Below are positions 3,218 to 63,001 of a stretch of 64,000 bases of DNA, one piece after another. A program made the position numbers and the translations under genes. The stretch lies in the IMG/VR virus record IMGVR_UViG_3300028886_000075; one strand, given 5' to 3'. Positions within the stretch are counted from its first letter, which is position 1. Each line of letters begins with the position of its first letter. This DNA is from a virus (lineage: Duplodnaviria; Heunggongvirae; Uroviricota; Caudoviricetes). A model generated the notes under the pieces. That model did not search any database. It was given only the letters and a program-made list of their open reading frames with translations, and was not told the origin of the DNA.

Positions 3218-3769
3218 ATGAAGAACCTAAAAGACATTATATCTGAAAAGTTAATTATAAATAAGAATATAAAGATTAATAAATATAATTATTTTCCAAA
3301 GAATAGAAGAGAACTTACGGAAATTGTTACTAATAAATATAAAGATCTTAAAGATAAAAATGAAGTATTAGATTTAAATGATATTGATGTTTCAAAAATA
3401 AAAGATCTTTCTTATTTATTTGAACTTATATATCCTAAAAAAGTAGATATGAATAACTGGAATGTAAGTAATGTAACAGATATTCATGGGTTATTTTGGA
3501 ATAATCAAATTATTGAAGAAGTTCATATAGAAGACTGGGATGTACGTAATGTAGAAACAGCTTATGGTGCTTTTTATTTTTGTAAAAACATTAAAGAATT
3601 AAATTTAGATAATTGGGAATTCAACAAATGTACAGAATTTGATTTAATGTTCAAAGGATGTAAAGAGTTAGATACTCATTTTACAGATAACTGGAAAATA
3701 ACACAAACAATAACATGTGATAACATGTTTGAAGGTTGTAAATATGCTCCAAAATGGTATAAATTATGA
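3218..3769 (+). CDS. BspA-family (DUF285-type) repeat protein, CTS-like N-terminus MKNLKDIISEKLIINKN
   Basis: Repeats of WNVSNVTDIHGLF / WDVRNVETAYGAF type. First of three tandem paralogs. Confidence 0.7.
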   Translation: MKNLKDIISEKLIINKNIKINKYNYFPKNRRELTEIVTNKYKDLKDKNEVLDLNDIDVSKIKDLSYLFELIYPKKVDMNNWNVSNVTDIHGLFWNNQIIEEVHIEDWDVRNVETAYGAFYFCKNIKELNLDNWEFNKCTEFDLMFKGCKELDTHFTDNWKITQTITCDNMFEGCKYAPKWYKL

Positions 3770-4233
3770 AAAATCTAAAAGACATTATATTAGAAAAATT
3801 AATAATCAATAAAAACACTAAAATTGATAATTATCATTATCATCCTAAAGATAAAGGTGAACTAATGAAATTATTAGATAAACTTATTGAAGAAAGAGGA
3901 TGGGAAGGTAACTTTAATGATATTGATACATCTAATATAACAGATATGTCTATGTTATTTACATTCTCACGTCCAAAGTTTAATGGTGATATATCGGAAT
4001 GGGATGTAAGTAACGTTACCAATATGCGTTTTATGTTCTGTGATACAAAATTCAGTGGCGATATATCAAATTGGGATGTAAGCAATGTTAAATATATGAC
4101 TGAAATGTTTTATGGGTGTAATGATTTTAATTGTAATTTAAATAAATGGGATGTAAGTAAAGTTGAAGATACAAGAGATATGTTTTATGGATGCCCATTA
4201 GAAAAAAATCCACCAAAATGGTATAAAATATAA
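3766..4233 (+). CDS. BspA-family (DUF285-type) repeat protein, CTS-like N-terminus
   Basis: Four or more repeats of GDISxWDVSNVxxMxxMF. ATGA overlap with the upstream paralog. Confidence 0.7.
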   Translation: MKNLKDIILEKLIINKNTKIDNYHYHPKDKGELMKLLDKLIEERGWEGNFNDIDTSNITDMSMLFTFSRPKFNGDISEWDVSNVTNMRFMFCDTKFSGDISNWDVSNVKYMTEMFYGCNDFNCNLNKWDVSKVEDTRDMFYGCPLEKNPPKWYKI

Positions 4234-4245
4234 ATATATTAAACT

Positions 4246-4917
4246 ATGAAAAATCTAAAAGACATCATTTCAGAAAAACTTATAATTAATAAGAATAGTA
4301 AAGTTAAAAAAAATGTTAAGACAACAAATGAACTTAAACAACTTATTAATAAACTTATTGAAGAACGTGGTATAAATGCAGATCTTAATGATATAGACAC
4401 TTCTGAAATAACAGATATGTCATATTTATTTTCTGATTCTAAATTTAATGGAGATATATCTGAATGGAATGTAAGTAATGTAAAAAATATGACATGTATG
4501 TTTAATAATTCTAAATTTAATGGAGATATATCTGAATGGGATGTTAGTAATGTTACTAGAATGAACGGCATGTTTATGCGTAGTAATTTTAATAATAATA
4601 TATCTTATTGGGATGTTAGTAATGTTAAACATATGAGTTTTATGTTTGCTAAAAATAAAAAATTTAATGGAGATATATCTGAATGGGATGTAAGTAATGT
4701 TGAAGACATGGAATGTATGTTTGAATATTCAATTTTTAATGGAGATATATCTAAATGGGATGTAAGTAATGTTACTAATATGAAAGAAATGTTTTATCAT
4801 TCAAAATTTAATGATATAAATGGTGATATCTCTAAATGGAATATTCGTAATGGTGTAAATATGGAACGTATGTTTAAAGGATCACCTATAGAAAATAATC
4901 AACCAAATTTTTATTAA
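4246..4917 (+). CDS. BspA-family (DUF285-type) repeat protein, CTS-like N-terminus
   Basis: Seven repeats of FNGDISEWDVSNVxxMxxMF. Confidence 0.75.
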   Translation: MKNLKDIISEKLIINKNSKVKKNVKTTNELKQLINKLIEERGINADLNDIDTSEITDMSYLFSDSKFNGDISEWNVSNVKNMTCMFNNSKFNGDISEWDVSNVTRMNGMFMRSNFNNNISYWDVSNVKHMSFMFAKNKKFNGDISEWDVSNVEDMECMFEYSIFNGDISKWDVSNVTNMKEMFYHSKFNDINGDISKWNIRNGVNMERMFKGSPIENNQPNFY

Positions 4918-4920
4918 ATA

Positions 4921-4975
4921 TTAAACTATGAAAAACTTATAATTTATAAACAAATGAAGAACCTAAAAGACATCA
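4921..4975. repeat. duplicated 5-prime module (vestigial start 'ttaaactatgaaaaa' plus 37 nt matching 3201-3237 with 1 mismatch)
   Basis: Direct comparison: 3201-3237 'ttataatttgtaaacaaatgaagaacctaaaagacat' against 4938-4974 with one substitution. 4921-4935 matches the 4240-4254 start context. Confidence 0.7.
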
Positions 4976-5457
4976 TATTAGAAAAACTTTCACCATTTAA
5001 TGTTTGGATAATGGTAGGTCTTCCTGGTGCGGGTAAATCAACATATATTAAAGAAAAATTACCTAAATCAATTAATATAGTTAGTCAAGACTATATAAGA
5101 CAAGAATTGGGTATAATAAAAGATGATACTCATAAGGCAATAGGAACCACTGAACAGGAAAAAGAAGTTACAAAAATAAATGATGAAAGAGTTGAAAAAC
5201 TTATTAAAGATAGAAAAGATTTTGTAATTGATAATACAAATGTTAAAGTAGGACGTGTTGAAAATTATTATAATAGGTTAAAGAAAATTGGTGCTAATGT
5301 TAAAATTGTTGTTGTTGATACACCTATAGAAACTTGTATTAAACGTAGAAATGATTGTATACCTGAAAACGTTATAAAACAAATGAATATTGGCATACAA
5401 AATGTTAAACAACAATTCAAAGATAATAAAGATTTAGAAATTGTTCATAATACTTAA
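4954..5457 (+). CDS. P-loop nucleotide/polynucleotide kinase-like protein (T4 Pnk kinase-domain-like), CTS-like N-terminus
   Basis: Walker A GLPGAGKST. VIDNTNVK parallels T4 Pnk ISDTNLN. 167 aa, so there is no phosphatase domain. Shares its first 12 aa with the DUF285 paralogs. Confidence 0.55.
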   Translation: MKNLKDIILEKLSPFNVWIMVGLPGAGKSTYIKEKLPKSINIVSQDYIRQELGIIKDDTHKAIGTTEQEKEVTKINDERVEKLIKDRKDFVIDNTNVKVGRVENYYNRLKKIGANVKIVVVDTPIETCIKRRNDCIPENVIKQMNIGIQNVKQQFKDNKDLEIVHNT

Positions 5458-8404: not shown

Positions 8405-10498
8405 ATGAGTGAACAAATTATTACTATGGCAATGATCGCCGGTTTTGTATTACTTGGCATTATTACAATTTGGGTAGTTCTTTCTAGATACCGTCGTTCT
8501 GCGCCTGATGAACTTTTGGTTGTATTCGGTAAATCTGGAAAGATTAAGGTTACCGACGAAAATGGTAAGGAACAAACAATTGTAGTTCCGTCTAAGATTA
8601 TTCAAGGTGGTGGTGCTTTTGTTTGGCCAATCATTCAAGATTACAAAAAGATGTCAATGGCACCTATTCAGATTAAGGTTACTGTTGATGGTATTGATTC
8701 TCAAGCTATTCCAATGCACTTGCCTGTTGTATTGACAACTGCTATTAGTAGGGATAAGGAAATTCAACAGAATGCTGCAACACGTTTCTTGAGTGCTAAG
8801 CCTGAGGAAATTCAGAAGCAAGTATCTGAAATTCTTGTTGGTGAAACACGTGCTATTATGGCAACAATGCTTATTGAGGAAATTAATGCTGAACGTGATA
8901 AGTTCTTGAATAAGGTTCGTGGTTCTCTTGAACAGGAGTTGGCTAAGGTCGGTTATGATGTTACTAATATTAACATTTCAGAAATTACTGATGATGCCAA
9001 TTATATTAAGAACTTAGGACAGAAGGCTGCTACAAAGGCACAAGCTAATGCTGAGGCTGATATTGCTGAACAGAGAAAACAAGGTAATGTAAAGATTGCT
9101 AATACTAAAAAGGAAGAGGAAATTCAGGTTGCTGCTGCAACTAAGGAGCAGGAAGTAACTGTTAACCAGACACGACAGGAGCAGGAAGTACAAGTTGCTG
9201 AGATTCAACGAGATAAGGAAATTAAACTTGCTGAGGCTGCTAAGGAACGTGAGTCAGGTATTGCTACTCAGGAAGCAGAGAAGGTTGCTAATATTGCTGA
9301 AGCTCAGGCTGATGCTGAATCTAAGAAAGCTGAAGCTATGGCAAAACAGGTAGCTAATGTATCTAATGCTGAGGCTGATGCTGAATCTAAGAAAGCTGAA
9401 GCTGATGCTCGTAAGGTTGCTGCTGTTGCTGCAAGAATGGCTGAAGCTGAGTCTGCTAAAGCAAAATCTGAATCTGAACAGAAGAAAGCTGTTGCTACTG
9501 CTGAGGCTGATGCTGAGGCTACTGAAAATGAACAGGAAGCAAAGAAGCAAACTCGTATTGCACAAGCTAATCAGTTAAAGGAAGCAGAAATTATCAAGGC
9601 TACACAGGAAAAGGAATCTAGGGCTGCTGAATATGAATCTCAAAAGAGACAAAAGAAAGCAGAACAGGACAAGAAGGCAGGTGTTGCTGAACAAATGGCA
9701 AAGATTGAGGTAGCTCAAGCTGCTGCTAAAGCAGGACAGGCAGAAGCTGATTCTATTAAAGTTTCTGAATCTGCTAAGGTTGAGGCTGAGATGTCTGTTG
9801 AAAAGATTCGTCAAGATCGTCAAATGGAAGTTAACAAGGCTGCTGCTAAGGCTGCTGAAGAAAAGTTAAATGCTACTGAGATTATTCCTGCACAGAAAGC
9901 TAAAGAGAAGGCAGTTATTGAAGCTGAAGCTGTGAAAATGAAGGCAGAACTTGAGGCTGAAGCTATTAAGGCAAAGATTTTACGTGAAGCTGAGGCTGAT
10001 GCCGAAAAGATTCGTTTGGCTAAGAATGCTGAGGCTGAAGGTACAAGAAATATTTTGATGGCTGAGGCTGAAGGTAAGAAGGCTTCATTGCTTGCTGAAG
10101 CTGAGGCTGAACAACAGAAAGCATTAGCTCCTGCTATGGCTCTTGAACGAATGGTTGCTGCTGTTGGTGGAAATCCTGATCTTGTTGTACAGTATAAGAT
10201 GGTTGATCAATATAAGGGTATTGCTGAGGCTCAGGCTAAGGTACTTGAACACATTCAGATGGGTAATGTTACCGTTTACGGTGATAAGAACACTGGTGCT
10301 GACTTCGCTAAGAGCTTCGTACAGAACTTTGCACCTGCTCTTGATATGATTAACAATGGAGTTAAGGGACAATTCTCTGAATTGTTTGGTAAGAAGAAGG
10401 ATGAACTTCCACAACCTGAACAACAGATTAATGAGGATAAGAAACCAAAGAGAAATTCTAAAAAGACAGATGATACTGCCTTCGATGAGGTAAAGTAA
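8405..10498 (+). CDS. SPFH/band-7 (flotillin/YqiK-like) membrane protein with long Ala/Glu/Lys coiled-coil
   Basis: N-terminal TM segment, then SAPDELLVVFGKSGK...IIQGGGAFVWPIIQDYKKMSMAPIQI, which is typical of flotillin-like SPFH proteins. About 450 aa of AEADAESKKAEA-type heptad repeats. Host-optimal codons. Confidence 0.75.
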   Translation: MSEQIITMAMIAGFVLLGIITIWVVLSRYRRSAPDELLVVFGKSGKIKVTDENGKEQTIVVPSKIIQGGGAFVWPIIQDYKKMSMAPIQIKVTVDGIDSQAIPMHLPVVLTTAISRDKEIQQNAATRFLSAKPEEIQKQVSEILVGETRAIMATMLIEEINAERDKFLNKVRGSLEQELAKVGYDVTNINISEITDDANYIKNLGQKAATKAQANAEADIAEQRKQGNVKIANTKKEEEIQVAAATKEQEVTVNQTRQEQEVQVAEIQRDKEIKLAEAAKERESGIATQEAEKVANIAEAQADAESKKAEAMAKQVANVSNAEADAESKKAEADARKVAAVAARMAEAESAKAKSESEQKKAVATAEADAEATENEQEAKKQTRIAQANQLKEAEIIKATQEKESRAAEYESQKRQKKAEQDKKAGVAEQMAKIEVAQAAAKAGQAEADSIKVSESAKVEAEMSVEKIRQDRQMEVNKAAAKAAEEKLNATEIIPAQKAKEKAVIEAEAVKMKAELEAEAIKAKILREAEADAEKIRLAKNAEAEGTRNILMAEAEGKKASLLAEAEAEQQKALAPAMALERMVAAVGGNPDLVVQYKMVDQYKGIAEAQAKVLEHIQMGNVTVYGDKNTGADFAKSFVQNFAPALDMINNGVKGQFSELFGKKKDELPQPEQQINEDKKPKRNSKKTDDTAFDEVK

Positions 10499-45857: not shown

Positions 45858-47234
45858 ATGAACGTTAAAATTGTTCAAGATAATAGTAGAACTGAACGTA
45901 ATGTTTCAGATGATGTAGTAGAAATACTTTATCAAGAAACTAAAAACTATGAAACACACGATAATTCTAAATTAATTGGTAGTATTGAAATCAATCGTGG
46001 GTATTCTGATGCAGTAGAATTTTTAAATAGAAATTATTCAAATTTAACAATATCTACTAAATTTGAATCATATATAAGATTTGAAGATCCTATTGTTGAA
46101 CAATTAATATTAGATAGATTTTCAACATTAGATACTCCAGTTGGTGATGGCATAGGTATAACACAATCTGATTTAAATAGTATTAATCAAGGTTGGTTTT
46201 GGGATACTTTTCAAAATACTGAAATAACTAAATTTAATGAATTTAAATTATGTATAAATTATAAAAATTTATCAAGTGCAAGTTTTAAAAATTGTACAAA
46301 ATTAGAAGAAATTAATTTAACTAATATTGAAATCATATCTGTAGCTTCATGTTTACAAAATACCAAAATAAAAGAAGCATATTTACCAAATTTAACAAAA
46401 ATAACTGCGGGTAATATTTTTTATAATTGTACAGAATTGGAATCGTTTAATGCTCCTTTATTAGAACAAATAACTGGTGCTTCACATTTTTATAATTGTA
46501 CTTCATTAAAAACAATAAACATACCTATATTTAATGGTAGAATAAGTGAGTCTATGTTTAGAAATTGTTCTTCATTAGAAACATTAAATATAGGAAATAT
46601 TACTGAAATAGTTGGGAGTTATGCTTTTCTTGGGTGTAAAGAATTGTCTTCAATAGATTTATCTGAATGTACAAAAATACAAAGCGATTCTGTATTTAAT
46701 GGTTGTTCTTCTTTAACTAATTTAGGAGATACATCAAATATTACTTATTTTAATGGAACTTGGACATTTTTTAATTGTTCAAATTTAACTGGTACTTTAG
46801 ATTTATCTAATATTAGTAATGATTTTAATTTAACTGGTACATTTAATAATTGTTCAAATTTAACAAAAATAAAATTAGGTGTTACAAATACTATAGGTAG
46901 TAGATGGCATGGTTTTGACAATGATAGAAAAGCATTTTACGGATGTACTAATTTAGTTACAATAGATATTAAACAATTAAACCATACAGCTCTTGAGTAT
47001 AAAAGTGCATTTGGTAATAATCCTGCATTAAGAAATTTTATAATACGTAATACTGAAAATATACCTGCATTTGATAATGAACAAACAACAGTAAATATAA
47101 ATTGTTTTGGTGGATCAAATGTTAAAGTATATGTTGATGATAATTTATTAGAAACATATAAAACTACAGAAGGCTGGGAAGATATGATAGATTATTTATA
47201 TCCTATTAGTGAATATGTTCCTATAGAAGATTAA
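45858..47234 (+). CDS. BspA-type leucine-rich repeat (LRR_5-like) protein
   Basis: Repeats of the form F..C..L..I.L.N.T.I....F..C..L. Confidence 0.65.
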   Translation: MNVKIVQDNSRTERNVSDDVVEILYQETKNYETHDNSKLIGSIEINRGYSDAVEFLNRNYSNLTISTKFESYIRFEDPIVEQLILDRFSTLDTPVGDGIGITQSDLNSINQGWFWDTFQNTEITKFNEFKLCINYKNLSSASFKNCTKLEEINLTNIEIISVASCLQNTKIKEAYLPNLTKITAGNIFYNCTELESFNAPLLEQITGASHFYNCTSLKTINIPIFNGRISESMFRNCSSLETLNIGNITEIVGSYAFLGCKELSSIDLSECTKIQSDSVFNGCSSLTNLGDTSNITYFNGTWTFFNCSNLTGTLDLSNISNDFNLTGTFNNCSNLTKIKLGVTNTIGSRWHGFDNDRKAFYGCTNLVTIDIKQLNHTALEYKSAFGNNPALRNFIIRNTENIPAFDNEQTTVNINCFGGSNVKVYVDDNLLETYKTTEGWEDMIDYLYPISEYVPIED

Positions 47235-48843: not shown

Positions 48844-51147
48844 ATGAATCATATTAATATACAAAATGAATCAACAAATATCACTGAATATATAGATTCA
48901 AATATTTTAGAAAAAATTTATAATTTATTTTCTGGTGAGGTTACACCAACAGAATTAGATCATATTATATTAGATAATACATCTATATTAAAAGGAAATA
49001 TAACAGTACCATCAGTATATAAATTTATATATGATTGGTTATTAGAAAGATATCCAAATACATTAAGAATTAATTATAATGATTTGTATATTTATATTAA
49101 AGATCCATATATAGAAGCAAAATTATTAGAAAACAATTTTGGTGATAGCACTAATTCACATGTAACATATTCTAAAGTATTTGCTGCAACAACATTACCG
49201 GTTTTTGGTATTACTGGTTCATATAGTGAATATGAAGAAAACATTACTGAATTTAAAGAATTGGCAGAATTCACTAATATTAAAAAACTCTCAGATAGAA
49301 TATTTAGACAATGTAGAAATTTAGAAACAGTTGATTTAATAAATGTTACAGAATTAGGAAATGCTGCATTTTATAGATCAGGTATAAAACATTGTTTAAA
49401 TTCGGGTAATGTTGAAATTATTGGGGAGCAGTGTATTGAAGATTGTACTAATTTAGAAACATTTGATTTTTCTTCAGTAAAAAAAATTGGAACACATAGT
49501 ATATATAATACAGGATTAACTGCAATACATTTTAATGGTTCTGAAGATATAATTTTAATGAACCAGGCAATCAATAATAATAAAAGTTTAACAGTTATAG
49601 ATGGATTACAAAATGTTAAGCAATTTACTGCCGGTAATATATTTTCGAATAACACTGCGTTGTTAGAATTAAGATTAGATAATTTGGAATTATGTGACGG
49701 AAATAATTTCGTTAACAATTGCACTTCATTACATACATTTTATGCACCTAAATTAGCGACAAAAATAGAATACGGGACATTTGGTGGTTGTAAAGCATTA
49801 AAAAATTTAACTATTGACTGGGAAAATATAACTACTATTAAAGGAAATGCATTTAATTCCTGTACATCATTAACATCAGATAAAGTTGATATATCTCATG
49901 TTACAGAATTTACAGGAAATGGACATTTTACTGAGTGTAGTAGTTTAACTTCATTAACGGTAAATCAAAATATAATTAATATTCCTGAATATTTTTGTTA
50001 CAGATGTACTAATTTATCAACAATTAATTTAACAAACTGTACTACTATTGGTAATTATGCTTTTATTGGTACATCATTAGTTAATGTTGACATAAGTGCA
50101 TGCTCATCTTTAGGAGCTGGTGTATTTGCTGAAGTGAATACATTGACTAGTGTTAAGTTATGTCCAAATTTGAAAACATTAAATACTGGAGTATTTAAGA
50201 GCTGTATTAATCTTTCTAACATCAACACTAATTTTGCAGTAATTACATCAATTGGTAGTTCTGCATTTGAAGGTTGTAAATCATTGACAACATTTGATGT
50301 TTCATCAGTTATGTCATTAGGTGATTGGTCATTTGCTTACTGTGACAATCTAACAACGTTAAATCTTTCTTCAGTAATAACAAACATACCTAATCAATGT
50401 TTTAGAACCAACCCTAAACTAACATCTGTTGGTGATTTGTCAAGTGTTAAAATAATAGAAAAACAGGCATTTTTAGATTGTCCTTTGTTAACTGGTCCAT
50501 TAGATTTAAGTAATTGTGAAACTATAAATGGAAGTGCATTCAAAGGATGTTCAGCATTGACAGAAGTAATATTGACTACAAAATGTACTTTAATAAAAGG
50601 TGAAGCATTTAGAGGATGTACGAATCTAGAATCAGTTGGGGATTTGTCTAACGTTACAATGTTAGGAACCCATTTTGCTAATGATATGCATACATTTAGT
50701 GGGTGTTCATCATTAGTTTCTGTCAACTTATCGAATAAATGTACATTATTATGTGGTAATACATTTAGAAACTGTACGTCATTAACATCTGTTGGTGATA
50801 TATCAGGTCTTATTGATATATATGTAGCGACATTCTACAATTGCTCATCATTGACTCAGAATTTTGATCTATCTAATATAACTGGAATAATTGGTGAAGC
50901 TGCATTCCAAGGATGTTCATCATTGACATCTATACTTGTTGGTGCTAATGTACAGAAAATTGATCAAAATGCATTTAAGGATTGCCCATTATTGACCGTC
51001 AAGTTCTTAGGAATTACACCACCATCAGATTTTGCAATCAATGCGTTCAATTCACAGATTTATAATATATTAGTTCCTAATGATTCATTGAATTCATATA
51101 AAGTAAAAATACCTGAAAGCTTACATTCAAAAATAGAAACATACTAA
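48844..51147 (+). CDS. large BspA-type leucine-rich repeat (LRR_5-like) protein (767 aa)
   Basis: About 20 repeats of CT(S/N)L..V.L....IG..AF.GC..L type. Confidence 0.7.
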   Translation: MNHINIQNESTNITEYIDSNILEKIYNLFSGEVTPTELDHIILDNTSILKGNITVPSVYKFIYDWLLERYPNTLRINYNDLYIYIKDPYIEAKLLENNFGDSTNSHVTYSKVFAATTLPVFGITGSYSEYEENITEFKELAEFTNIKKLSDRIFRQCRNLETVDLINVTELGNAAFYRSGIKHCLNSGNVEIIGEQCIEDCTNLETFDFSSVKKIGTHSIYNTGLTAIHFNGSEDIILMNQAINNNKSLTVIDGLQNVKQFTAGNIFSNNTALLELRLDNLELCDGNNFVNNCTSLHTFYAPKLATKIEYGTFGGCKALKNLTIDWENITTIKGNAFNSCTSLTSDKVDISHVTEFTGNGHFTECSSLTSLTVNQNIINIPEYFCYRCTNLSTINLTNCTTIGNYAFIGTSLVNVDISACSSLGAGVFAEVNTLTSVKLCPNLKTLNTGVFKSCINLSNINTNFAVITSIGSSAFEGCKSLTTFDVSSVMSLGDWSFAYCDNLTTLNLSSVITNIPNQCFRTNPKLTSVGDLSSVKIIEKQAFLDCPLLTGPLDLSNCETINGSAFKGCSALTEVILTTKCTLIKGEAFRGCTNLESVGDLSNVTMLGTHFANDMHTFSGCSSLVSVNLSNKCTLLCGNTFRNCTSLTSVGDISGLIDIYVATFYNCSSLTQNFDLSNITGIIGEAAFQGCSSLTSILVGANVQKIDQNAFKDCPLLTVKFLGITPPSDFAINAFNSQIYNILVPNDSLNSYKVKIPESLHSKIETY

Positions 51148-51232: not shown

Positions 51233-51871
51233 ATGACAAATAATATTGAAATAATGAGAAAGTATATGGGAGACTTAGGAATTCCTGAAAGGCAGCTATA
51301 TAGAAAAGATCTTTATTTTGATGTTCAGTTGATTCGTCGTGGTAAAGATAATCCTGATATGCCAGCTGCAAATTATACCTTTAAGACTTATTATATTGAT
51401 TCATTAGAATTGTTTGATAGATATATTGAAGAAATCAAACAATGTTGTGAAATGTTTAAACTTCGTGCATATATCAGCGTTAATGCTAAATCCAAAATTG
51501 AACTTTCAAAAAAGACATTAGTTAAATATGCAGAAATGGTTGCTTTAGAAGAATCAAAGAAGCCATGGAGATTTTGTGATTCTGTAAATGGATCAATGTC
51601 AGGAAAAGAAAAACGATGGGTAATAGATATTGATGATTGTGAAGATGATAAGCAATATCTTTATTATGTTCGTGAAGCTATTGGGAGATGTTCAACTAAA
51701 TACGATAATGCAATTGTTGTTACGTTACCAACAAAATCAGGATTTCATGTTATAACTCACCCATTCAATACTTATGAATTCAATAATCATTGTAAAGACA
51801 TGGGTATTGAAATTCCAGAAATTAAAAAGAATCACATAACTTTACTTTATGAAAATATTAATTTAGAATAA
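51233..51871 (+). CDS. hypothetical protein (upstream neighbour of the NMNAT gene)
   Basis: 212-aa ORF. Confidence 0.55.
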   Translation: MTNNIEIMRKYMGDLGIPERQLYRKDLYFDVQLIRRGKDNPDMPAANYTFKTYYIDSLELFDRYIEEIKQCCEMFKLRAYISVNAKSKIELSKKTLVKYAEMVALEESKKPWRFCDSVNGSMSGKEKRWVIDIDDCEDDKQYLYYVREAIGRCSTKYDNAIVVTLPTKSGFHVITHPFNTYEFNNHCKDMGIEIPEIKKNHITLLYENINLE

Positions 51872-51891
51872 ATAATTAAAGAAATTAATAG

Positions 51892-52470
51892 ATGAAAACT
51901 GGAATAATATTAGCACGATTACAACCCATTCATAATGGGCATTTAGCATTAATTAATAAGGCATGGGAAGAAAATGATGAAGTATATATATTTGTTGGTA
52001 GTGCAGATAAATTTAATGAACGTAACCCAATACCAATTAATCTTAGAATGCAGTTAGTTGATGGTGCATTAGAAACACTTAGAGAAAAAAATAAAACACT
52101 TTCTAACCCAAAAATAATTAAAGTTGTACCATTAGATGATTTAACTGATGAATCAGATAATTCACATGATTGGGGATTTTATTTATATTCTAAAATTGTA
52201 AGTGAAACGGGTAATCCAAATTTTACTATATATTATTCAGATGGTTTTGAAATAATTACTACATGGTTTCCATCATTTATCCTAAGAAATAATGTAAGCT
52301 TATGTTTACTTGCTCGTAATGCTACAGTTGATGGTATATCAGCGACTGAGATAAGAAAGATGATACTTGAAGATAATGTTAATAAATTAAAACATTTTGT
52401 TCCTAATATTGTTTTTGATATGAAAGATACAATTAAGAAACATATTGAATTAGCAAAACTAATAAAGTAA
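51892..52470 (+). CDS. nadM: nicotinamide-nucleotide adenylyltransferase, archaeal NadM type
   Basis: GIILARLQPIHNGHLALINKAWEENDEVYIFVGSADKFNERNPIP parallels M. jannaschii NMNAT GLLVGRMQPFHRGHLQVIK...DELIICIGSAQ...RDPF. This includes the (H/T)xGH signature. Confidence 0.8.
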   Translation: MKTGIILARLQPIHNGHLALINKAWEENDEVYIFVGSADKFNERNPIPINLRMQLVDGALETLREKNKTLSNPKIIKVVPLDDLTDESDNSHDWGFYLYSKIVSETGNPNFTIYYSDGFEIITTWFPSFILRNNVSLCLLARNATVDGISATEIRKMILEDNVNKLKHFVPNIVFDMKDTIKKHIELAKLIK

Positions 52471-52472
52471 TT

Positions 52473-52760
52473 ATGAAATATAAAATTATTAAAAAGCACA
52501 GTAAAAGTTTAGTGGAAGTTCAACATAATGGGGATGAACCAAATACATATAACGTTAAATATTCAGAATGGTATGAAGCAAAACGTAAAGGTAAATTTTT
52601 TGGATTTTGGCATACAGTAGGACACGAATATGACTATTATGGAGATGTATTCCCACACACTGAAAAAACACTTGAAGGTATAGAAGATTATGTTCGTAAA
52701 TGGAATGAAGTTGAATATTTTAATGAGCCTATAGAAATAATTAAAGATTTAGAATTATGA
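52473..52760 (+). CDS. hypothetical protein
   Basis: 95-aa ORF. Confidence 0.5.
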   Translation: MKYKIIKKHSKSLVEVQHNGDEPNTYNVKYSEWYEAKRKGKFFGFWHTVGHEYDYYGDVFPHTEKTLEGIEDYVRKWNEVEYFNEPIEIIKDLEL

Positions 52761-52963
52761 AGAATTGTAATAATTGCCCACATGGTAGATATGATCCATG
52801 TTCAGATATATGTGATAATTGTATGCATGATTCAGAAACTGGTTGGTTTGGATTTACAGATCATAGAGTAGGTAAACATTTCAATAATGAAGAAGAACAA
52901 TCAGAATATTATCAAGATTATTTTGACAATGAATATGATGATGAAAATGAAAGTATAATATAG
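52757..52963 (+). CDS. small Cys-rich zinc-finger-like protein with an acidic tail
   Basis: CNNCPHGRYDPCSDICDNCMHD. ATGA overlap with the upstream gene. Confidence 0.5.
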   Translation: MKNCNNCPHGRYDPCSDICDNCMHDSETGWFGFTDHRVGKHFNNEEEQSEYYQDYFDNEYDDENESII

Positions 52964-52965
52964 TT

Positions 52966-53376
52966 ATGAATCCACGTAAAGAACGACAAGAACAAATAAG
53001 AGCAGCAGCAAAATATAATACTACTTGTAAAGATCCTGTTTCATTTGAAGCAGGAGCAAAATGGGCAGATTATCACCCTGATTGGAAAGAAGGATATCCT
53101 CAAGTTGAAGAAAATAAATATGGTTTACCACGTTTATATCTTTGTCAGATTTTGATTCTTGATATGACATTTGGTTATAGATATTCATATAGAGTAGGAT
53201 TTATTAATGAAGAAGGAAAATGGAATATTGAAAGAGAAGGATTTATAAAAGTTTTAAGATATATGAATATATATGCAGATGAATCTGATTCACAATTAGT
53301 ACAAAAGGATATTCCATCGTTTAATAATAATGAAGAAGATGAATCTGATGAAAATAATTTAAAAGATGCAGCATAA
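52966..53376 (+). CDS. hypothetical protein
   Basis: 136-aa ORF. Confidence 0.5.
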   Translation: MNPRKERQEQIRAAAKYNTTCKDPVSFEAGAKWADYHPDWKEGYPQVEENKYGLPRLYLCQILILDMTFGYRYSYRVGFINEEGKWNIEREGFIKVLRYMNIYADESDSQLVQKDIPSFNNNEEDESDENNLKDAA

Positions 53377-53511
53377 TTATGAAACAGTGGAGTGATTTAA
53401 CAAAGGGCGATGAATTATAACCTAAGTCTTTGTTACAAAAAGAAATTAGTAAAACATATTAAGAAATTGAAAAACAACAAGAAAACATAAAATATTTAAA
53501 AGGACTATTGA

Positions 53512-53949
53512 ATGAAACATATTGAAGATATTAAAGTAAACGATATATTATGGGTTATTGATGATTCTTTACATCCTTGTTTAATTGCATTACCAATTAT
53601 TAATATTGATGTTAAAAAATATCCTTGGACTAGTTATCATAATTTATTATTGAAATTTCCTGATGGTTCTGAGAAATGGATATCTTTATTTAATAACGGA
53701 TATAAACAAGATTATGATAAACCATTTTTAAGTTCTATTTTAGAAAATTTAAATGATTATGAAAATAACGATACTTATTTAGTTTGTTTTGATAGGATAA
53801 ACTTATATAATGAATATGTATCTGGTTTAAAATCATCTATAAAAAATGTTGAAAAAGTAATTGAAAATGGAAATAAAAATCTTATAGACCTTAATTTTAA
53901 GTTAGATTATATATTAACACAAATAAAATTAATTGAAGATAATGAATAA
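53512..53949 (+). CDS. hypothetical protein
   Basis: 145-aa ORF. Confidence 0.5.
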   Translation: MKHIEDIKVNDILWVIDDSLHPCLIALPIINIDVKKYPWTSYHNLLLKFPDGSEKWISLFNNGYKQDYDKPFLSSILENLNDYENNDTYLVCFDRINLYNEYVSGLKSSIKNVEKVIENGNKNLIDLNFKLDYILTQIKLIEDNE

Positions 53950-54343
53950 TTTAGAAATTGATAATCAAAATAAATCTCCAAGATTTACTAAATTAGGAGA
54001 ATCATTAGTAAAATGGATTAATAGTTATCCTGAAGATGAATTTGATAATATTAATGAAGGAATAGAATTATTAGTTTTAGGAGTAGATAATAAACATAAA
54101 GCAAGAATATGTTTTATGTTAGGAGATGATAAATATCCGATTGATTCAGCGTTTAATGCAATTAATCATGGTATTGGAGATTTTAGAAATAAAGATAATT
54201 ATTTAGAACAAGATATATTTACTGGTGTAGCAGACTATATTGCAAGAGTATGCGCAAATAATTCATATATTTGGAAACAATTTAAAGAAGGTGTAGAAAA
54301 ATACATTAAAGAAATCAATAATGATAATATTCAAGAAGGGTAA
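53933..54343 (+). CDS. hypothetical protein
   Basis: 136-aa ORF. Confidence 0.5.
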   Translation: MKIMNNLEIDNQNKSPRFTKLGESLVKWINSYPEDEFDNINEGIELLVLGVDNKHKARICFMLGDDKYPIDSAFNAINHGIGDFRNKDNYLEQDIFTGVADYIARVCANNSYIWKQFKEGVEKYIKEINNDNIQEG

Positions 54344-54836
54344 TTTATTTGATTCTAAATGTCAGACATTAGTTAATACTGTTAATTGTAATGGCATTAT
54401 GGGTAAAGGTATAGCATTACAATTTAAACAAAATTACCCAAGTATGTTTAATGAATATAAAAGAGTATGTTCAGGAAAATCATATAATGGTATTGGTAAA
54501 TTAAAAAATGGGGGTGATCTTTGGTTATATACATATATAGATTTATATAAAGAACGTAATATATTGTGTTTTGCTACAAAAGAAAATTGGTGGAATAAAT
54601 CAAAATTAGAATATATTGAACGAGGATTAAAAACATTAACGCAACATTTTGAATTTGAAGATACCTATGATACACCAGGACAATCATTTTACTTCTATGA
54701 AAAATTAAAAATCAAAAGTATTGCATGGCCTAAACTTGGTTGTACAAATGGTGGATTAAACTGGGAAGAACAAGTAAAACCACTTATGATAAAATATTTA
54801 GGTGATATAGATATTATAAATGAAATATATGAGTAA
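54321..54836 (+). CDS. macro domain (ADP-ribose binding/processing) protein
   Basis: KKGNLFDSKCQTLVNTVNCNGIMGKGIALQFK parallels the macro-domain N-terminal motif (GDIT...VNAANxxLxGGGGV.GAI). IAWPKLGCTNGG parallels the AFPAISTG(V/I)YG distal motif. Confidence 0.65.
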   Translation: MIIFKKGNLFDSKCQTLVNTVNCNGIMGKGIALQFKQNYPSMFNEYKRVCSGKSYNGIGKLKNGGDLWLYTYIDLYKERNILCFATKENWWNKSKLEYIERGLKTLTQHFEFEDTYDTPGQSFYFYEKLKIKSIAWPKLGCTNGGLNWEEQVKPLMIKYLGDIDIINEIYE

Positions 54837-55020
54837 GAAATTAGTAAAAGGAAACGATTTTGGAGAATCAAAATTATGTGGTGTGTGTTGTGGATTATCA
54901 GAGTATTTTGGAATTGATGTAACAATACTTCGATTTATATGGGTGATAGCAGTTCTATTTTATGGAATAGGATTGATTCCATATATAATTTTAGCAATTA
55001 TAATGCCGGATAAAGAATGA
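54820..55020 (+). CDS. PspC-domain small membrane protein
   Basis: KLCGVCCGLSEYFGIDVTILRFIWVIAVLFYGIGLIPYIILAIIMP closely follows the PspC domain (GVCAGIANYFDVPVKLVRILVVL...YIIL). Confidence 0.7.
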   Translation: MKYMSKKLVKGNDFGESKLCGVCCGLSEYFGIDVTILRFIWVIAVLFYGIGLIPYIILAIIMPDKE

Positions 55021-55148: not shown

Positions 55149-55235
55149 AACGGAATATCAAGATCATATAATTGAAGATGATATATTACCATTACAAGCA
55201 ATGTATTATAGTATAAATAAATTAAAATAAAGTTT

Positions 55236-57540: not shown

Positions 57541-58758
57541 GTGAGTAAACAGTTTAATTTAAGTAAGTCTTCGTTAAACGAAATAGAATTATTTTTTGAT
57601 AAGATAGATTCTTTTATTGATGATTATGAATTTTATGATACATTTAAAGAAATTGTATATAAAGATTCTAAAATGATAAAAGATTGTTCGGAAAAATGTA
57701 TTGTAAGTTTTTATATAGAGTCTTGTAAAGATATATTAGAAAAATCTAATTATGAAATATATGAATCTTTTTATAATGATTTAAAATATAAAACAAGATT
57801 AAAACTTGTTGATAAGTTTGTACCAAAAGTTTTATATGATAATAATATTGATATATATTTTAATGAAGTAAAAAGAGAATATATTATGCATCCTATGGGT
57901 GAATCTGAAGATATGGCGTTTGTACCAGAAAATAAAGAAGTTTTTATTAAGAATAATTTAAAACTTGTAATTGATTGTGCAAAACGTTATCAAAATTTAG
58001 GTATTCCATTGGAAGATTTAATACAAGCAGGCAATGAAGGATTATTAATAGCTTTTAATAAATTTGATGGTGAAAGATCAAATTTAAGAAATAATATCAT
58101 AAACGATATAAAGAAATCAGATTTATATTTTTTTAATAAATATGATGCAATAGATATTATTAAAAAAAATTTTCAATATACAAAAACTTTAGAATCAACA
58201 TTAAGTAAATTACCCGAAGAAGGATTTGAATGTAAAGATGATTTTATTGATTGGGCACAAGAAAACATTAAAAAAGCATCGTTTTCATCTATAGGTTTTG
58301 CGTGGATTAAGGCATTTATATTATCTGAAATTAATAAACTTGGAAAGATAATAAGAGTTCCTAAGTCTGCTCAAAAGAAAGGTGTATCTACAGTTAATGT
58401 TTTACGTTTAGATTCAATTAATCCACACACTGATGATTCATATCACGATAATCAAATTTCTTCAGTCGCAAATGAAGAATTTGCTATTGAAGATGAAACA
58501 ATGGAAAATATGGAACGTCAGAATTTATTCAAAGAAATAATTGAACGAATGCTTTGTAATGTTTCTGCATTAGATAGAAGAATAATAAAAAAGAAATTTG
58601 GAATTGATAAACCATTTCCAATGTCAATAAATGAAATAGCAGAAAATGAAGGTTTATCTGCAAATAAAGTTAAGTATAGTATAAGTAATACATTAAAGAT
58701 AATTGAAAAAAATTGTACACCAAATGAACGTAAAACAATAATATCACTTTTGAAGTAA
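57541..58758 (+). CDS. sigma-70-family RNA polymerase sigma factor (second phage-encoded copy; GTG start)
   Basis: Region 2: NKEVFIKNNLKLVIDCAKRYQNLGIPLEDLIQAGNEGLLIAFNKFDGER. Region-4-like HTH: MSINEIAENEGLSANKVKYSISNTLKII. Confidence 0.65.
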   Translation: MSKQFNLSKSSLNEIELFFDKIDSFIDDYEFYDTFKEIVYKDSKMIKDCSEKCIVSFYIESCKDILEKSNYEIYESFYNDLKYKTRLKLVDKFVPKVLYDNNIDIYFNEVKREYIMHPMGESEDMAFVPENKEVFIKNNLKLVIDCAKRYQNLGIPLEDLIQAGNEGLLIAFNKFDGERSNLRNNIINDIKKSDLYFFNKYDAIDIIKKNFQYTKTLESTLSKLPEEGFECKDDFIDWAQENIKKASFSSIGFAWIKAFILSEINKLGKIIRVPKSAQKKGVSTVNVLRLDSINPHTDDSYHDNQISSVANEEFAIEDETMENMERQNLFKEIIERMLCNVSALDRRIIKKKFGIDKPFPMSINEIAENEGLSANKVKYSISNTLKIIEKNCTPNERKTIISLLK

Positions 58759-60140: not shown

Positions 60141-60275
60141 TATGAATATTGGAACATTTAGTATGTTAAATATGATGAGACATAACAATATGATGGAAGA
60201 ACAAAAACGTCGTCATCATAGAATGAGAGAATTAGTTGCTAAACGTAGAAAAGAAAATAATAATGAAGAAGAATG
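60141..60275 (+). CDS. small basic ORF (44 aa), stop overlaps the topoisomerase start (ATGA)
   Basis: Found by manual reading. Confidence 0.3.
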
Positions 60276-62165
60276 ACAAAGAAAATTGAAGAGAAATATC
60301 AGGAATTATCGGAAGTTCAACATATTCTTCAGCGCCCAGGAATGTGGGTAGGTTCAACAAAGTCTGAAGAAAAGGATGCCTTCATTTATAATCATAAGAC
60401 AGGAAAGTTCGAAATGAAAATCGTTAACTATATTCCTGCAATGCTTAAGGTTGTAGATGAGGTCATTTCTAACTCTTGTGATGAGTTCAGACGTAAAGAC
60501 AATATGGGTCTTACTGAACTTTATGTAAAGATTGATAAAGATAATGGAGAAATCATCGTAAGAGATAATGGTGGTATTCCAATTGTTAAGCATAAAGAAG
60601 CAGGAGTATATGTTCCTGAATTTATATTTGGACGTTTAAGAACATCTTCAAACTATGATGATACTGAAGATAGAAATGTAATAGGAACAAATGGTGTAGG
60701 ATCTGCATTGTGTAATGTATTTTCCACATTTTTTGAAATTGAGTCAGCAGATGGTAAAAATGAGTTTCACCGTTCATGGTCTAATAATATGGAGACTTTA
60801 AATGATGATCTTAAAGTTATAAAATGCGGAAAGAAGACTCATTATACACAGACACGTTTCAAATTAGATTTTAGTAGATTTGAAACTGAACTGACAACTT
60901 TTGATAATGACTTTATTAATATAATTCATAAGAGGTGTATTGATGCTGCTGCAGCTAATCCAGGTCTTAAGGTAACATTCAATAGTGGTGGCGAAGATAT
61001 TGAATGGAAATTTAAGAAACTTGATGAATACATTGATCTTTATTCTAATCTTTTGAATATATCTGATAAGATTCCATTTGAAAATGATTTATGTACTGCA
61101 TGGATATTTCCGGATAGTTCTGTTGATGTAGGTTTCGTAAATGGTGCAGAATGTTCAAAAGGTACTCACATGCGAGCTATCCGTCAAGAAATCAATCAGG
61201 CAGTTTGCGATTATCTTATAAAGAAAGATAAGCTTAAGGATTTAACTACACGTGGAGTTGATAATAAGTATTCTGTATTCATTAATATTAATGTATCTAA
61301 TCCTGCATACGATTCGCAAACTAAAGATTGCCTCACAACTCCTATTGATAAGTTTTCAAAAGATGAGAAACTAAAATGGGAAGTAAATGAAAAGTTCTTA
61401 AATAAGATCATTAAGTCTGAAATTGTTGCATTAGTAAGAGATTGGTATAAACAGAAATCTGCAGCTGAGGATGAAAAGGCACTTCGTAAAATCAATAGGG
61501 AAACAAATAAAGGATTGAAACGCCCTGATAAATATATAACATGTTCTTCAAAAGTAAGAGCAAATAAACAACTTTGGGTCTTTGAAGGAGACTCTGCAAA
61601 GGCGGGCTTTAGGGGAGGTCGTAATCCAGAATTTCAAGCAGGATTGATTATGCGAGGAGTTCCATTAAATGTATATGGAATGACTCCTGTTCAGATTATG
61701 AAGAATGAAGTATTTAATGATCTTGTTACCGTACTTGGACTTAAGTGGGGTAAAGAATTCAATATTAATGATCTGAACTTTGGTAAAATTGTTATTGCAA
61801 CTGATGCTGACGTTGATGGTGATAAGATTGCTAGTCTACTATTATGTTTCTTCAATAATTGGCCTGAACTATTTGAAAAGAATATAGTTTGTAGAAGCCT
61901 ATCTCCAATTATCATATCAAGAAAAGGAAAGGACTGCCAGAAATTCTATACAATGGATGAATTTAAAGAAGCTGAAAAGAAACTTAAAGGTTATTCTCAT
62001 AAATATGCGAAAGGTCTTGGTGGTCTATCAAATCAAGAATCAAAGGAAATGTATCAAGATCCTAAATTCTTATATTTCAAAAAAGATGAAGCTGCAGATA
62101 GTATGTTCAGAAAGTGGTTCAATAAGGGAGAATCTGAAGAACGTAAAAATATGTTGAAATATTAA
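60273..62165 (+). CDS. gp39: DNA topoisomerase II large subunit (T4 gp39-like, GyrB-type ATPase plus Toprim)
   Basis: N-terminus LSEVQHILQRPGMWVGS (GyrB/gp39 signature). GHKL ATPase motifs (IVRDNGGIPI..., GTNGVGSAL). Toprim motifs LWVFEGDSA and IATDADVDGDKIASLL. Confidence 0.88.
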   Translation: MTKKIEEKYQELSEVQHILQRPGMWVGSTKSEEKDAFIYNHKTGKFEMKIVNYIPAMLKVVDEVISNSCDEFRRKDNMGLTELYVKIDKDNGEIIVRDNGGIPIVKHKEAGVYVPEFIFGRLRTSSNYDDTEDRNVIGTNGVGSALCNVFSTFFEIESADGKNEFHRSWSNNMETLNDDLKVIKCGKKTHYTQTRFKLDFSRFETELTTFDNDFINIIHKRCIDAAAANPGLKVTFNSGGEDIEWKFKKLDEYIDLYSNLLNISDKIPFENDLCTAWIFPDSSVDVGFVNGAECSKGTHMRAIRQEINQAVCDYLIKKDKLKDLTTRGVDNKYSVFININVSNPAYDSQTKDCLTTPIDKFSKDEKLKWEVNEKFLNKIIKSEIVALVRDWYKQKSAAEDEKALRKINRETNKGLKRPDKYITCSSKVRANKQLWVFEGDSAKAGFRGGRNPEFQAGLIMRGVPLNVYGMTPVQIMKNEVFNDLVTVLGLKWGKEFNINDLNFGKIVIATDADVDGDKIASLLLCFFNNWPELFEKNIVCRSLSPIIISRKGKDCQKFYTMDEFKEAEKKLKGYSHKYAKGLGGLSNQESKEMYQDPKFLYFKKDEAADSMFRKWFNKGESEERKNMLKY

Positions 62166-62167
62166 AT

Positions 62168-63001
62168 ATGAAAAATTTAGGTGATTTAATAAAAGAATCA
62201 TTTATTAATACAGATATTAATGAATATGATAATTATATAATTGAAGGATTAAATATTGATCCTAATGAAAAAATTGTATCATTAACAGATAATCATAATA
62301 AAGGATTAGATTTATCATTAATTAATAATCCTGTATATAGTACATATAAAGGATATAATGTTATTTCTATTTTTAAAAGAACAAAATTATATGATATTAA
62401 TGATGTTCAAAGAGATGGAAATCCATTTATTTATGCATTAAAAAATAAAAATGGATGGAAATTTAAAATAACTGATAAAGAAATACATAAATATATTAAG
62501 AGATTTTTAGAAATATGTAAAAAAATTAAATCTTCATATGATACAATTATAATAACACCATCATCAAGTGATATTAATGAAAAATTTATGAAAGTAATAT
62601 CTAATCAAGTTAATTGTAAAGATATTATTAATGAATATTTTGTAAAATTATCTAAAGAAGAAATAATTGATGATGATTTAATTGATAAAGATCAAATTCA
62701 AAATGATTATGGAAATGATTATACTAAAGTTTTAGCAGAAATTAATAGAAGTTTTAGACGAATGAAAGGTGAATCATTTGAAGCTAAATATATTAAAAAG
62801 GAATATTTAAAATATATTAAATATATATCAACAAATTCAAATGATAATATAAGAGATAAAATAGATAATAAGGATATTTTATTATTAGATGATACTATAT
62901 CATCTGGAGAAACATTAAGTCAATGTATAGAAGGTATAATATCAAATTTTAATCCAAAATCAATTACAATTATAACATTATTATCACAGCTTAATGAATA
63001 A
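62168..63001 (+). CDS. type I phosphoribosyltransferase-fold protein, CTS-like N-terminus (MKNLGDLIKES)
   Basis: The C-terminal PRPP-binding motif DILLLDDTISSGETL matches the PRTase / PRPP-synthetase signature. Confidence 0.55.
   Translation: MKNLGDLIKESFINTDINEYDNYIIEGLNIDPNEKIVSLTDNHNKGLDLSLINNPVYSTYKGYNVISIFKRTKLYDINDVQRDGNPFIYALKNKNGWKFKITDKEIHKYIKRFLEICKKIKSSYDTIIITPSSSDINEKFMKVISNQVNCKDIINEYFVKLSKEEIIDDDLIDKDQIQNDYGNDYTKVLAEINRSFRRMKGESFEAKYIKKEYLKYIKYISTNSNDNIRDKIDNKDILLLDDTISSGETLSQCIEGIISNFNPKSITIITLLSQLNE

Follow-up and report, generated by a model that had tools for sequence, protein, structure and literature searches.

A DarG-type macrodomain gene and a NadM-like nucleotidyltransferase gene are gained and lost separately in an accessory region of a huge phage

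The closest described counterparts of the two genes considered here are the phage protein AdfM and the nicotinamide mononucleotide (NMN) adenylyltransferases (NMNATs) of the NadM type. AdfM, the product of PhiKZ gp104, has homologues in chimalliviruses and is a stand-alone macrodomain of ~160-170 aa of the DarG2 type (PMC13309987). It removes DarT2-made ADP-ribose from DNA and rescues DarT2 toxicity (2026; PMC13309987), and it is needed for infecting DarTG2 hosts (PMC13309987). In bacterial DarG, the antitoxin of the DarTG2 system, the macrodomain is accompanied by a C-terminal half that interacts with DarT. Phage salvage of nicotinamide adenine dinucleotide (NAD+) is represented by NARP2, marked by a Nampt/NadV gene, and by the NadR-type salvage of NARP3 (Bas30_86/87; PMC13464706), marked by a ribosylnicotinamide kinase and PnuC. 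Here, we analyzed a 64,000-nucleotide stretch of a tailed-virus genome (IMG/VR record IMGVR_UViG_3300028886_000075; hereafter the window), in which positions 51233-54836 encode a HIGH-motif nucleotidyltransferase (the transferase) and a macrodomain protein of DarG type (the macro protein) among small open reading frames (ORFs). Both genes probably belong to known kinds, namely the phage NAD+ salvage adenylyltransferases and the AdfM-type anti-DarT2 hydrolases. We favor, with moderate confidence, an explanation in which they are two independent helper genes of these kinds, lying within a hypervariable stretch of small accessory genes of a huge phage.

The macro protein matches Pfam Macro (PF01661) with an E-value of 2.2e-11 (44.2 bits against a cut-off of 22), and both Gly-rich phosphate-binding loops, GIMGKGI at residues 25-31 and LGCTNGGL at residues 139-146, are present and aligned with the DarG loops, which bears out the macro domain call made in the initial annotation of this locus. 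It matches the NCBIfam DarG model NF048014 at 2.6e-45, the PADLOC DarG model at 1.3e-46, and the DarG macrodomain structures of M. tuberculosis (5m3i) and T. aquaticus (5m31) at 1e-23; other macrodomain classes fall far behind in the PDB (Poa1p-type, 6e-6; OARD1/TARG1, 0.2). Identity to bacterial DarG amounts to 41-43% over aligned macrodomain segments. Moreover, the numbering is colinear with that of T. aquaticus DarG (TaqDarG) over the first 50 residues, so that the N-terminal contact residues carry identical numbers. The ADP-ribose contacts of TaqDarG are N8, L9, T20, N22, Q34, T79, G117, N120 and G121 (PMC5179494), all of which are identical in the macro protein (N8, L9, T20, N22, Q34, T86, G140, N143 and G144). 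K80 is the catalytic lysine of TaqDarG and N22 its second most important residue (PMC5179494; PMC13309987). K80 corresponds to K87 in the macro protein and W83 to W90, and both K87 and N22 (N23 of AdfM) are invariant in an alignment with TaqDarG, M. tuberculosis DarG (MtbDarG) and AdfM.

Unlike bacterial DarG, the macro protein is encoded by a phage, has no darT neighbor and lacks the C-terminal DarT-binding half, matching positions 1-103 and a second stretch of the 338-position model. It is because of this missing half that its score falls below the equivalog cut-off for full-length DarG (155 versus 250 bits). No match to DarT was found among the neighbors of the macro gene or across the window ORFs in family scans that included PADLOC. 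Since both the DarT-binding half and a DarT neighbor are missing, the macro protein fits the orphan-antitoxin class of AdfM, which likewise has the catalytic Lys, no DarT-binding domain and no adjacent toxin, and to which it is 30% identical (E = 4e-20). It is best read as a DarG-type orphan antitoxin resembling AdfM, and is a probable DNA ADP-ribosyl glycohydrolase. Its setting differs from that of AdfM: the phage has a T4-like capsid and its relatives are PAU, Lak and uncultured gut phages, the window shows no sign of a nucleus-forming lifestyle, and the gene order is an uncharacterized ORF, the macro gene and a PspC gene. Stand-alone macro homologues occur in 325 phage records, phiEco32-like phages included, and are mostly annotated "Appr-1-p processing" or "phosphatase".

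Two features of the protein speak against its predicted activity. The position of TaqDarG G119, where the substitution G119E impairs the enzyme (PMC5179494), is occupied by Thr142; AdfM, which is active, has Ala there. The protein also carries a 16-residue loop insertion, FEFEDTYDTPGQSFYF (residues 110-125; window 54648-54695), that is found neither in its closest relatives nor in bacterial DarG. In PhiKZ AdfM, this surface loop also accommodates an insertion, though a different one.

By analogy to PhiKZ AdfM, host DarT2 would ADP-ribosylate thymidines in single-stranded phage DNA, the macro protein would bind the ADP-ribose in its macro pocket, and Lys87 (TaqDarG K80) would cleave the base-ribose bond, restoring phage DNA that can be replicated and packaged. 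The protein would act by catalysis only, because the DarT-binding domain of DarG is missing. The initial annotation had named Thoeris, DSR, DarTG-like toxins and CBASS NADases as defences that the locus might counter; because the macro protein is of DarG type, its likely target narrows to DarT2-type DNA ADP-ribosylation, and Thoeris, DSR and CBASS NADases are not likely targets. The protein might instead act off DNA, either as an ADP-ribose-1''-phosphate phosphatase (Poa1p-like, processing by-products of NAD+-dependent RNA repair) or by de-ADP-ribosylating protein or RNA that host toxins or the phage's own transferases have modified. We consider this unlikely. The PHROG 335 label "phosphatase", the "Appr-1-p processing" label of many phage homologues and a weak N-terminal match to ADP-ribose-1''-phosphate phosphatase structures (6e-6) would be in keeping with it, as would the RNA ligase and polynucleotide-kinase-like protein encoded elsewhere in the window and the action on proteins of TARG1, the closest eukaryotic relative of DarG (PMC5179494). 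Yet similarity to DarG exceeds that to the phosphatase class by ~17 orders of magnitude, conservation covers both the catalytic Lys and a Trp for which stacking on thymine has been proposed (PMC5179494), the sole characterized phage member of the clade acts on DarT2-modified DNA (PMC13309987), and the window yielded neither an ADP-ribosyltransferase nor Tpt1.

The transferase carries the motifs A-R-L-Q-P-I-H14-N-G-H17 and S150-A-T-E-I-R155, matching the R-x-Q-P-x-H-x-G-H and S-x-T-x-x-R signatures of NadM NMNATs such as MJ0541 (1f9a), 1ej2 and the NadM-Nudix enzymes (e.g. KVP40 NatV, 2qjo, 2qjt). It matches Citrate_ly_lig and CTP_transf_like above Pfam gathering scores, and PHROGs families labeled "cytidyltransferase" and "nicotinamide-nucleotide adenylyltransferase"; public databases name its family just "cytidyltransferase-like". 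The NCBIfam archaeal NMNAT models NF002243 and TIGR01527 are matched at 2e-14 and 1e-12, and a single-sequence PDB search placed the M. jannaschii and M. thermautotrophicum NMNATs at the top. Both the transferase and the macro protein have hundreds of homologues, and their domain matches far exceed what chance would give. An alignment of 51 transferase family members, with a mean identity of 29%, was used as a profile against the PDB, and its first 14 matches are all NMNATs (8e-23 to 2e-8). These extend over the full length and include 1f9a (8e-23), 1ej2 (2e-21) and the NadM-Nudix proteins of Francisella (2qjt, 3e-21) and Synechocystis (2qjo, 1e-18), with NadR-type enzymes behind the NadM types (4e-12 to 2e-8). 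The first non-NMNAT is a phosphopantetheine adenylyltransferase (PPAT) at 4e-6, matched over its N-terminal part only, and no cytidylyltransferase appears at E <= 0.01. By sequence, the transferase is thus much nearer to NMNATs than to cytidylyltransferases, a distinction on which the initial annotation had staked its assignment.

Residue-level comparison points in the same direction. R9, H14, H17 and R155 align with R11, H16, H19 and R136 of the M. thermautotrophicum enzyme (1m8j, 1ej2); R9, H17 and R155 are invariant across the 51 family members, and R11, H19 and R136 are the residues mutated in PDB entries of that NMNAT, according to their titles. D83 and W94 align with M. thermautotrophicum D80 and W87, which is suggestive only. 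D80 and W87 are attributed a role in nicotinamide binding. A literature search on residue roles in archaeal NMNATs returned nothing usable. An AlphaFold (AF2) model of the transferase has a mean predicted local distance difference test score (pLDDT) of 94.8, and in Foldseek its ranks 1-16 are all NadM-type NMNATs with template-modeling (TM) scores of 0.61-0.79. The likeness to NadM enzymes thus extends to the conserved Arg residues, the D...W segment, the overall fold and alignment over the full length. In contrast to them, the protein lacks a Nudix domain, the loop that precedes its conserved Trp is longer, and its C terminus bears an additional helix; its identity in structure-based alignments is ~21-28%, and no Nampt accompanies it in the window.

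The neighborhoods of related transferases lend the NMNAT assignment modest support. A search of viral contigs with the transferase returned 38 loci (labeled here by L numbers) with homologues 52-75% identical. In the closest two or three lineages (75% identity; L001 and L043, on megaphage contigs of 435-441 kb), the gene immediately 5' of the transferase encodes an AAA_28 P-loop kinase (L001:5322-5849; L043:9322-9849). The ribosylnicotinamide-kinase domain of NadR is the sole PDB match of this kinase at E < 0.01, a weak one at 1.5e-3, and the arrangement looks like a split NadR. It is here that the family comes closest to NARP3; unlike NARP3, however, the window has no AAA_28 kinase or PnuC, and its transferase is nearer to NadM than to NadR. 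Another homologue (P0297, 437 aa; 39% identity) joins the transferase to Nudix and NrtR winged-helix (NrtR_WHD) domains in a single protein. Nudix and NrtR winged-helix domains belong to regulators of NAD metabolism. In a crAss-like lineage (L006-L022; e.g. L011:6551-7270), the transferase is directly followed by a gene with Tad2-like (PF11195) and crAss001_48 domains. Counted by independent lineage, 6 of 17 have a Tad2-like gene no more than 6 kb from the transferase, and one has it within 1 kb; the raw count of 20 of 38 loci was downgraded to a weak hint after near-identical loci were collapsed. The cultured Bacteroides phage BS-TP1 has a 54.5%-identical copy (gp96; L047:5001-5555), annotated "cytidyltransferase", among RtcB, ParA-like and radical-SAM genes. 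Finally, a 631-aa LigA-like NAD+-dependent DNA ligase is encoded 3 kb downstream of the transferase orthologue in L001 (L001:9421-11316), which suggests a possible housekeeping reason to recycle NMN.

Several observations count against the NMNAT assignment. Scores against the NCBIfam models lie far under the equivalog cut-offs (53.5 versus 127 bits and 47.4 versus 181.2 bits), and PPAT follows in Foldseek at 4e-6, just ~100-fold behind NMNAT, so that discrimination in favor of NMNAT comes mainly from sequence. The links to Tad2-like and AAA_28 genes occur in a minority of independent lineages only. Moreover, no source of NMN is apparent nearby, as neither the Nampt/NadV gene of NARP2 nor the ribosylnicotinamide kinase and PnuC of NARP3 was found within the 64-kb window, which covers a minor part of a genome of at least 290 kb. 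Scans of the window ORFs found no Nampt/NAPRTase, Nudix, PnuC, AAA_28, Tad, ADP-ribosyltransferase, SIR2 or DarT, and family scans found no Tpt1 or Adps/Namat among them. A tblastn search of the window with the neighbors of related transferases (AAA_28 kinase, Tad2-like, LigA and RtcB) gave no match at E < 0.1. Overall, the transferase is probably a divergent NadM-like NMNAT. The NadM-type domain call of the initial annotation stands, with NMNATs as best matches; its description as confident does not, given the distance below the NCBIfam cut-offs and a substrate predicted from similarity.

As an NMNAT, the transferase would convert NMN and ATP to NAD+ and pyrophosphate, so that NAD+ would be replenished during infection, whether to offset NAD+-depleting defences or to recycle NMN freed by NAD+-dependent enzymes. 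A purely housekeeping role, in which the gene recycles NMN from an NAD+-dependent ligase or other NAD+ consumers of a very large genome, or else adenylylation of another acceptor, is possible though doubtful. The LigA-like ligase beside the L001 orthologue and the RtcB, radical-SAM and ParA-like neighbors in crAss-like relatives would suit such a role, NARP2-type enzymes raise NAD+ without any defence system (bioRxiv 10.1101/2024.02.11.579819), and the databases know the family only as cytidyltransferase-like. However, no LigA was found in the window by tblastn, no profile or structural match favors a non-NMN acceptor, Tad2-like genes recur within 6 kb in the lineages counted above, and a patchy distribution, with insertion in the window's lineage only, is the pattern of an accessory gene rather than of a core replication gene.

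The initial annotation had treated the two genes as one NAD+/ADP-ribose module, a view that gene content in relatives contradicts. None of the 38 transferase-bearing viral loci has a macro gene within 6 kb, and none of the small ORFs of the window occurs within 6 kb in these loci, except for a distant homologue of ORF 51233 in two (ORFs are named by their first position in the window; Table 1). When viral contigs were searched with the macro protein, only the locus with a macro remnant (L039) came back, which makes this search uninformative on distribution and useful for synteny. Three relatives (L045, L046 and L039) are syntenic with the window at this locus. The order in the window is a leucine-rich repeat (LRR) gene, 51233, transferase, 52473, 52757, 52966, 53512, 53933, macro, PspC, 55017, 55236 and 55592. 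In L045, the order is LRR, 52473, 52966, an extra ORF, 53512, 53933, macro, an extra ORF, PspC, 55236 and 55592, with the macro gene present and both the transferase and 51233 missing. L046, a contig of only 2.4 kb, has 52966, 53512, 53933, macro, PspC and 55017. L039 has 51233, an unrelated 103-aa ORF, 52966, an extra ORF, 53512, a macro remnant, 55236 and 55592; transferase and 53933 are missing, and the flanking ORFs 51233, 52966, 53512 and 55236 are kept. The remnant comprises approximately the first 19 codons of the macro gene followed by a stop (L039:6001-6090; compare window 54298-54378 and 55157-55230). In the DNA alignment of L039, window position 54378 is followed by 55157, and since the match resumes there, the macro body, the PspC gene and a 43-aa ORF have been deleted. 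From this pattern of presence and absence, the transferase is an insertion peculiar to the window's lineage, and the macro gene has been at this locus for longer and was deleted once. Transferase and macro are independent genes, gained and lost separately, and not a co-inherited unit.

A single counter-defence module, in which the macro protein frees ADP-ribose and the transferase or partners among the intervening ORFs rebuild NAD+, is accordingly very improbable. For it speak the distance of 1.85 kb between the two genes, their shared strand and the lack of a predicted terminator separating them (in a scan that was uninformative), together with the involvement of NAD+ or ADP-ribose in both chemistries. 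Against this stand the 38 loci without a nearby macro gene, the macro gene without transferase in L045, and L039, where transferase and intact macro are both missing and the flanks persist. In addition, the window encodes none of the enzymes (Adps, Namat or Nampt) that would turn ADP-ribose into something an NMNAT accepts, and NMNATs do not use ADP-ribose itself. Scanning 50.9-55.7 kb for promoters and terminators gave fewer promoter-like sites than in shuffled sequences and one antisense terminator-like site, and does not define transcription units. The GC content and third-position GC content (GC3) are uniform across the locus, and because those of the transferase and macro genes match their neighbors, there is no compositional sign of recent transfer.

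A smaller unit may exist around the macro gene. The trio of 53933 (133-159 aa), macro and PspC is kept at 56-62% protein identity in L045:6001-7385 and L046:1118-2218 (window 53933-55020), with an extra ORF separating macro and PspC in L045. ORF 53933 lies directly upstream of macro in every relative with an intact macro gene and is missing where macro was lost (L039), a small-sample hint at a three-gene cassette. It is conceivable, if improbable in our judgment, that this trio is an anti-DarT cassette and that the transferase family is central to an NAD+-reconstitution variant, not described before, in phages of Bacteroidota. Such a variant could combine a stand-alone NadM-like NMNAT, working on host NMN, in some lineages with a NadR-like ribosylnicotinamide kinase (a split NadR without PnuC) or a Tad2-like sponge, and in the cassette the two small proteins could modulate or localize the hydrolase. 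Members of the transferase family are common among gut crAss-like phages and 400-kb megaphages.

Table 1. Genes at the transferase and macro locus, with window coordinates
Feature	Position	Strand	Remarks
Flanking ORF, 212 aa, AEP (archaeo-eukaryotic primase / Prim-Pol)-like fold	51233-51871	+	Predicted fold
HIGH-motif nucleotidyltransferase, stand-alone, 192 aa	51892-52470	+	Probable NMN adenylyltransferase, divergent NadM-like clade
Small ORF, 95 aa, locus backbone	52473-52760	+	53%-identical homologue in transferase-free L045
Cys-rich ORF, 68 aa	52757-52963	+	No family match; not in L039 or L045
ORF, 136 aa, locus backbone	52966-53376	+	78-83% identity in L039, L045, L046
ORF, 145 aa, locus backbone	53512-53949	+	43-50% identity in L039, L045, L046
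ORF, 136 aa (TTG start; 133 aa from ATG at 53942)	53933-54343	+	23-nt overlap with macro start
Orphan DarG-type macrodomain, 171 aa, AdfM-like	54321-54836	+	Probable DNA ADP-ribosyl glycohydrolase; Pfam, NCBIfam, PADLOC and PDB matches
PspC-domain small membrane protein, 66 aa	54820-55020	+	Pfam PspC E 1.4e-19; overlaps macro stop

All ORFs listed in the initial annotation lie where it had placed them, and the locus ORFs are tightly packed or overlapping on one strand; the Cys-rich ORF 52757 is an addition to that list. The suggestion that the flanking ORFs are pathway partners fails on several grounds. Every one of them is too small for Nampt or Adps, none has a Nudix or other NAD-related match in Pfam, PHROGs, NCBIfam or PADLOC, and they persist without either gene. 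ORF 51233 belongs to a widespread unannotated phage family (phrog_14949; 435 homologues) with an invariant DxD and His, and models confidently as an AEP primase or Prim-Pol-like fold, not as an NAD enzyme. ORFs 52473 and 52757 have no family match in the same four databases, and the sole family match of ORF 53512 is a weak one to phrog_17520. ORF 53933 has five homologues among 5.8 billion proteins, too few for a useful alignment or model. The small ORFs between transferase and macro are not pathway partners of the two genes. As a further candidate partner, a 277-aa ORF at 62168-63001, 7 kb away from the locus and without a PHROG match, was considered as a PRPP-synthetase/Adps-like protein (PRPP, phosphoribosyl pyrophosphate) and rejected, as it has only a generic type-I PRPP-binding loop (hypoxanthine-guanine phosphoribosyltransferase, E ~1e-3). 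This type-I phosphoribosyltransferase loop, ILLLDDTISSGETL, is C-terminal, and the N-terminal 200 residues of the protein are unrecognizable.

The window has ~25% GC and is coding almost entirely on the + strand around the locus. Pfam and PHROG scans covered 45 non-overlapping ORFs of at least 150 aa (42, plus three in the region of the locus) and 31 smaller ones. They recovered structural genes (a Gp23-type capsid, a prohead protease and tail proteins) together with a helicase, MazG, a topoisomerase II subunit, a sigma-like factor and an SPFH protein. Capsid identity is 36% to an uncultured 462-kb phage and ~30-33% to Sphingomonas phage PAU, Tenacibaculum jumbo phages and Prevotella Lak phages, and an identical copy of the transferase protein is present on a contig of 289,687 bp. 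Because of this exact match and the capsid relatives, the source is judged to be a huge tailed phage of at least 290 kb with a T4-like capsid. A Bacteroidota bacterium from gut or rumen is its probable host. A megablast search with 15 kb around the locus found no match in 50,697 phage records.

Other genes of the window are of interest in their own right. An RNA-ligase-family protein (123-1520) and a polynucleotide-kinase-like AAA_33 protein (4954-5457) suggest a capacity for RNA repair, e.g. against host anticodon nucleases. Three tandem DUF285 paralogues and two large BspA-type LRR proteins are encoded at 3218-4917, 45858-47234 and 48844-51147; the 767-aa LRR gene is missing at this position in L039 and present in L045. 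Just 5' of the structural genes, a 697-aa protein has an N-terminal SPFH/Band 7 domain (8405-10498), which is unusual in a phage. Not far downstream of the accessory region are genes for a sigma-70 region-2 protein (57541-58758; phrog_351, sigma factor) and a GyrB-like topoisomerase II subunit (60273-62165).

These data do not overturn current understanding, since both gene classes and the counter-defence logic have already been published. The locus offers a clean example of genes gained and lost singly, and a caution against reading proximity in phage accessory regions as a pathway. If the assignment of the transferase is true, a large and essentially unannotated transferase family of crAss-like phages and megaphages would provide candidate NAD+-restoring enzymes. 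If that of the macro protein is true, the AdfM-type anti-DarTG2 strategy would reach beyond the nucleus-forming Pseudomonas and Erwinia phages to the huge phages of gut and rumen.

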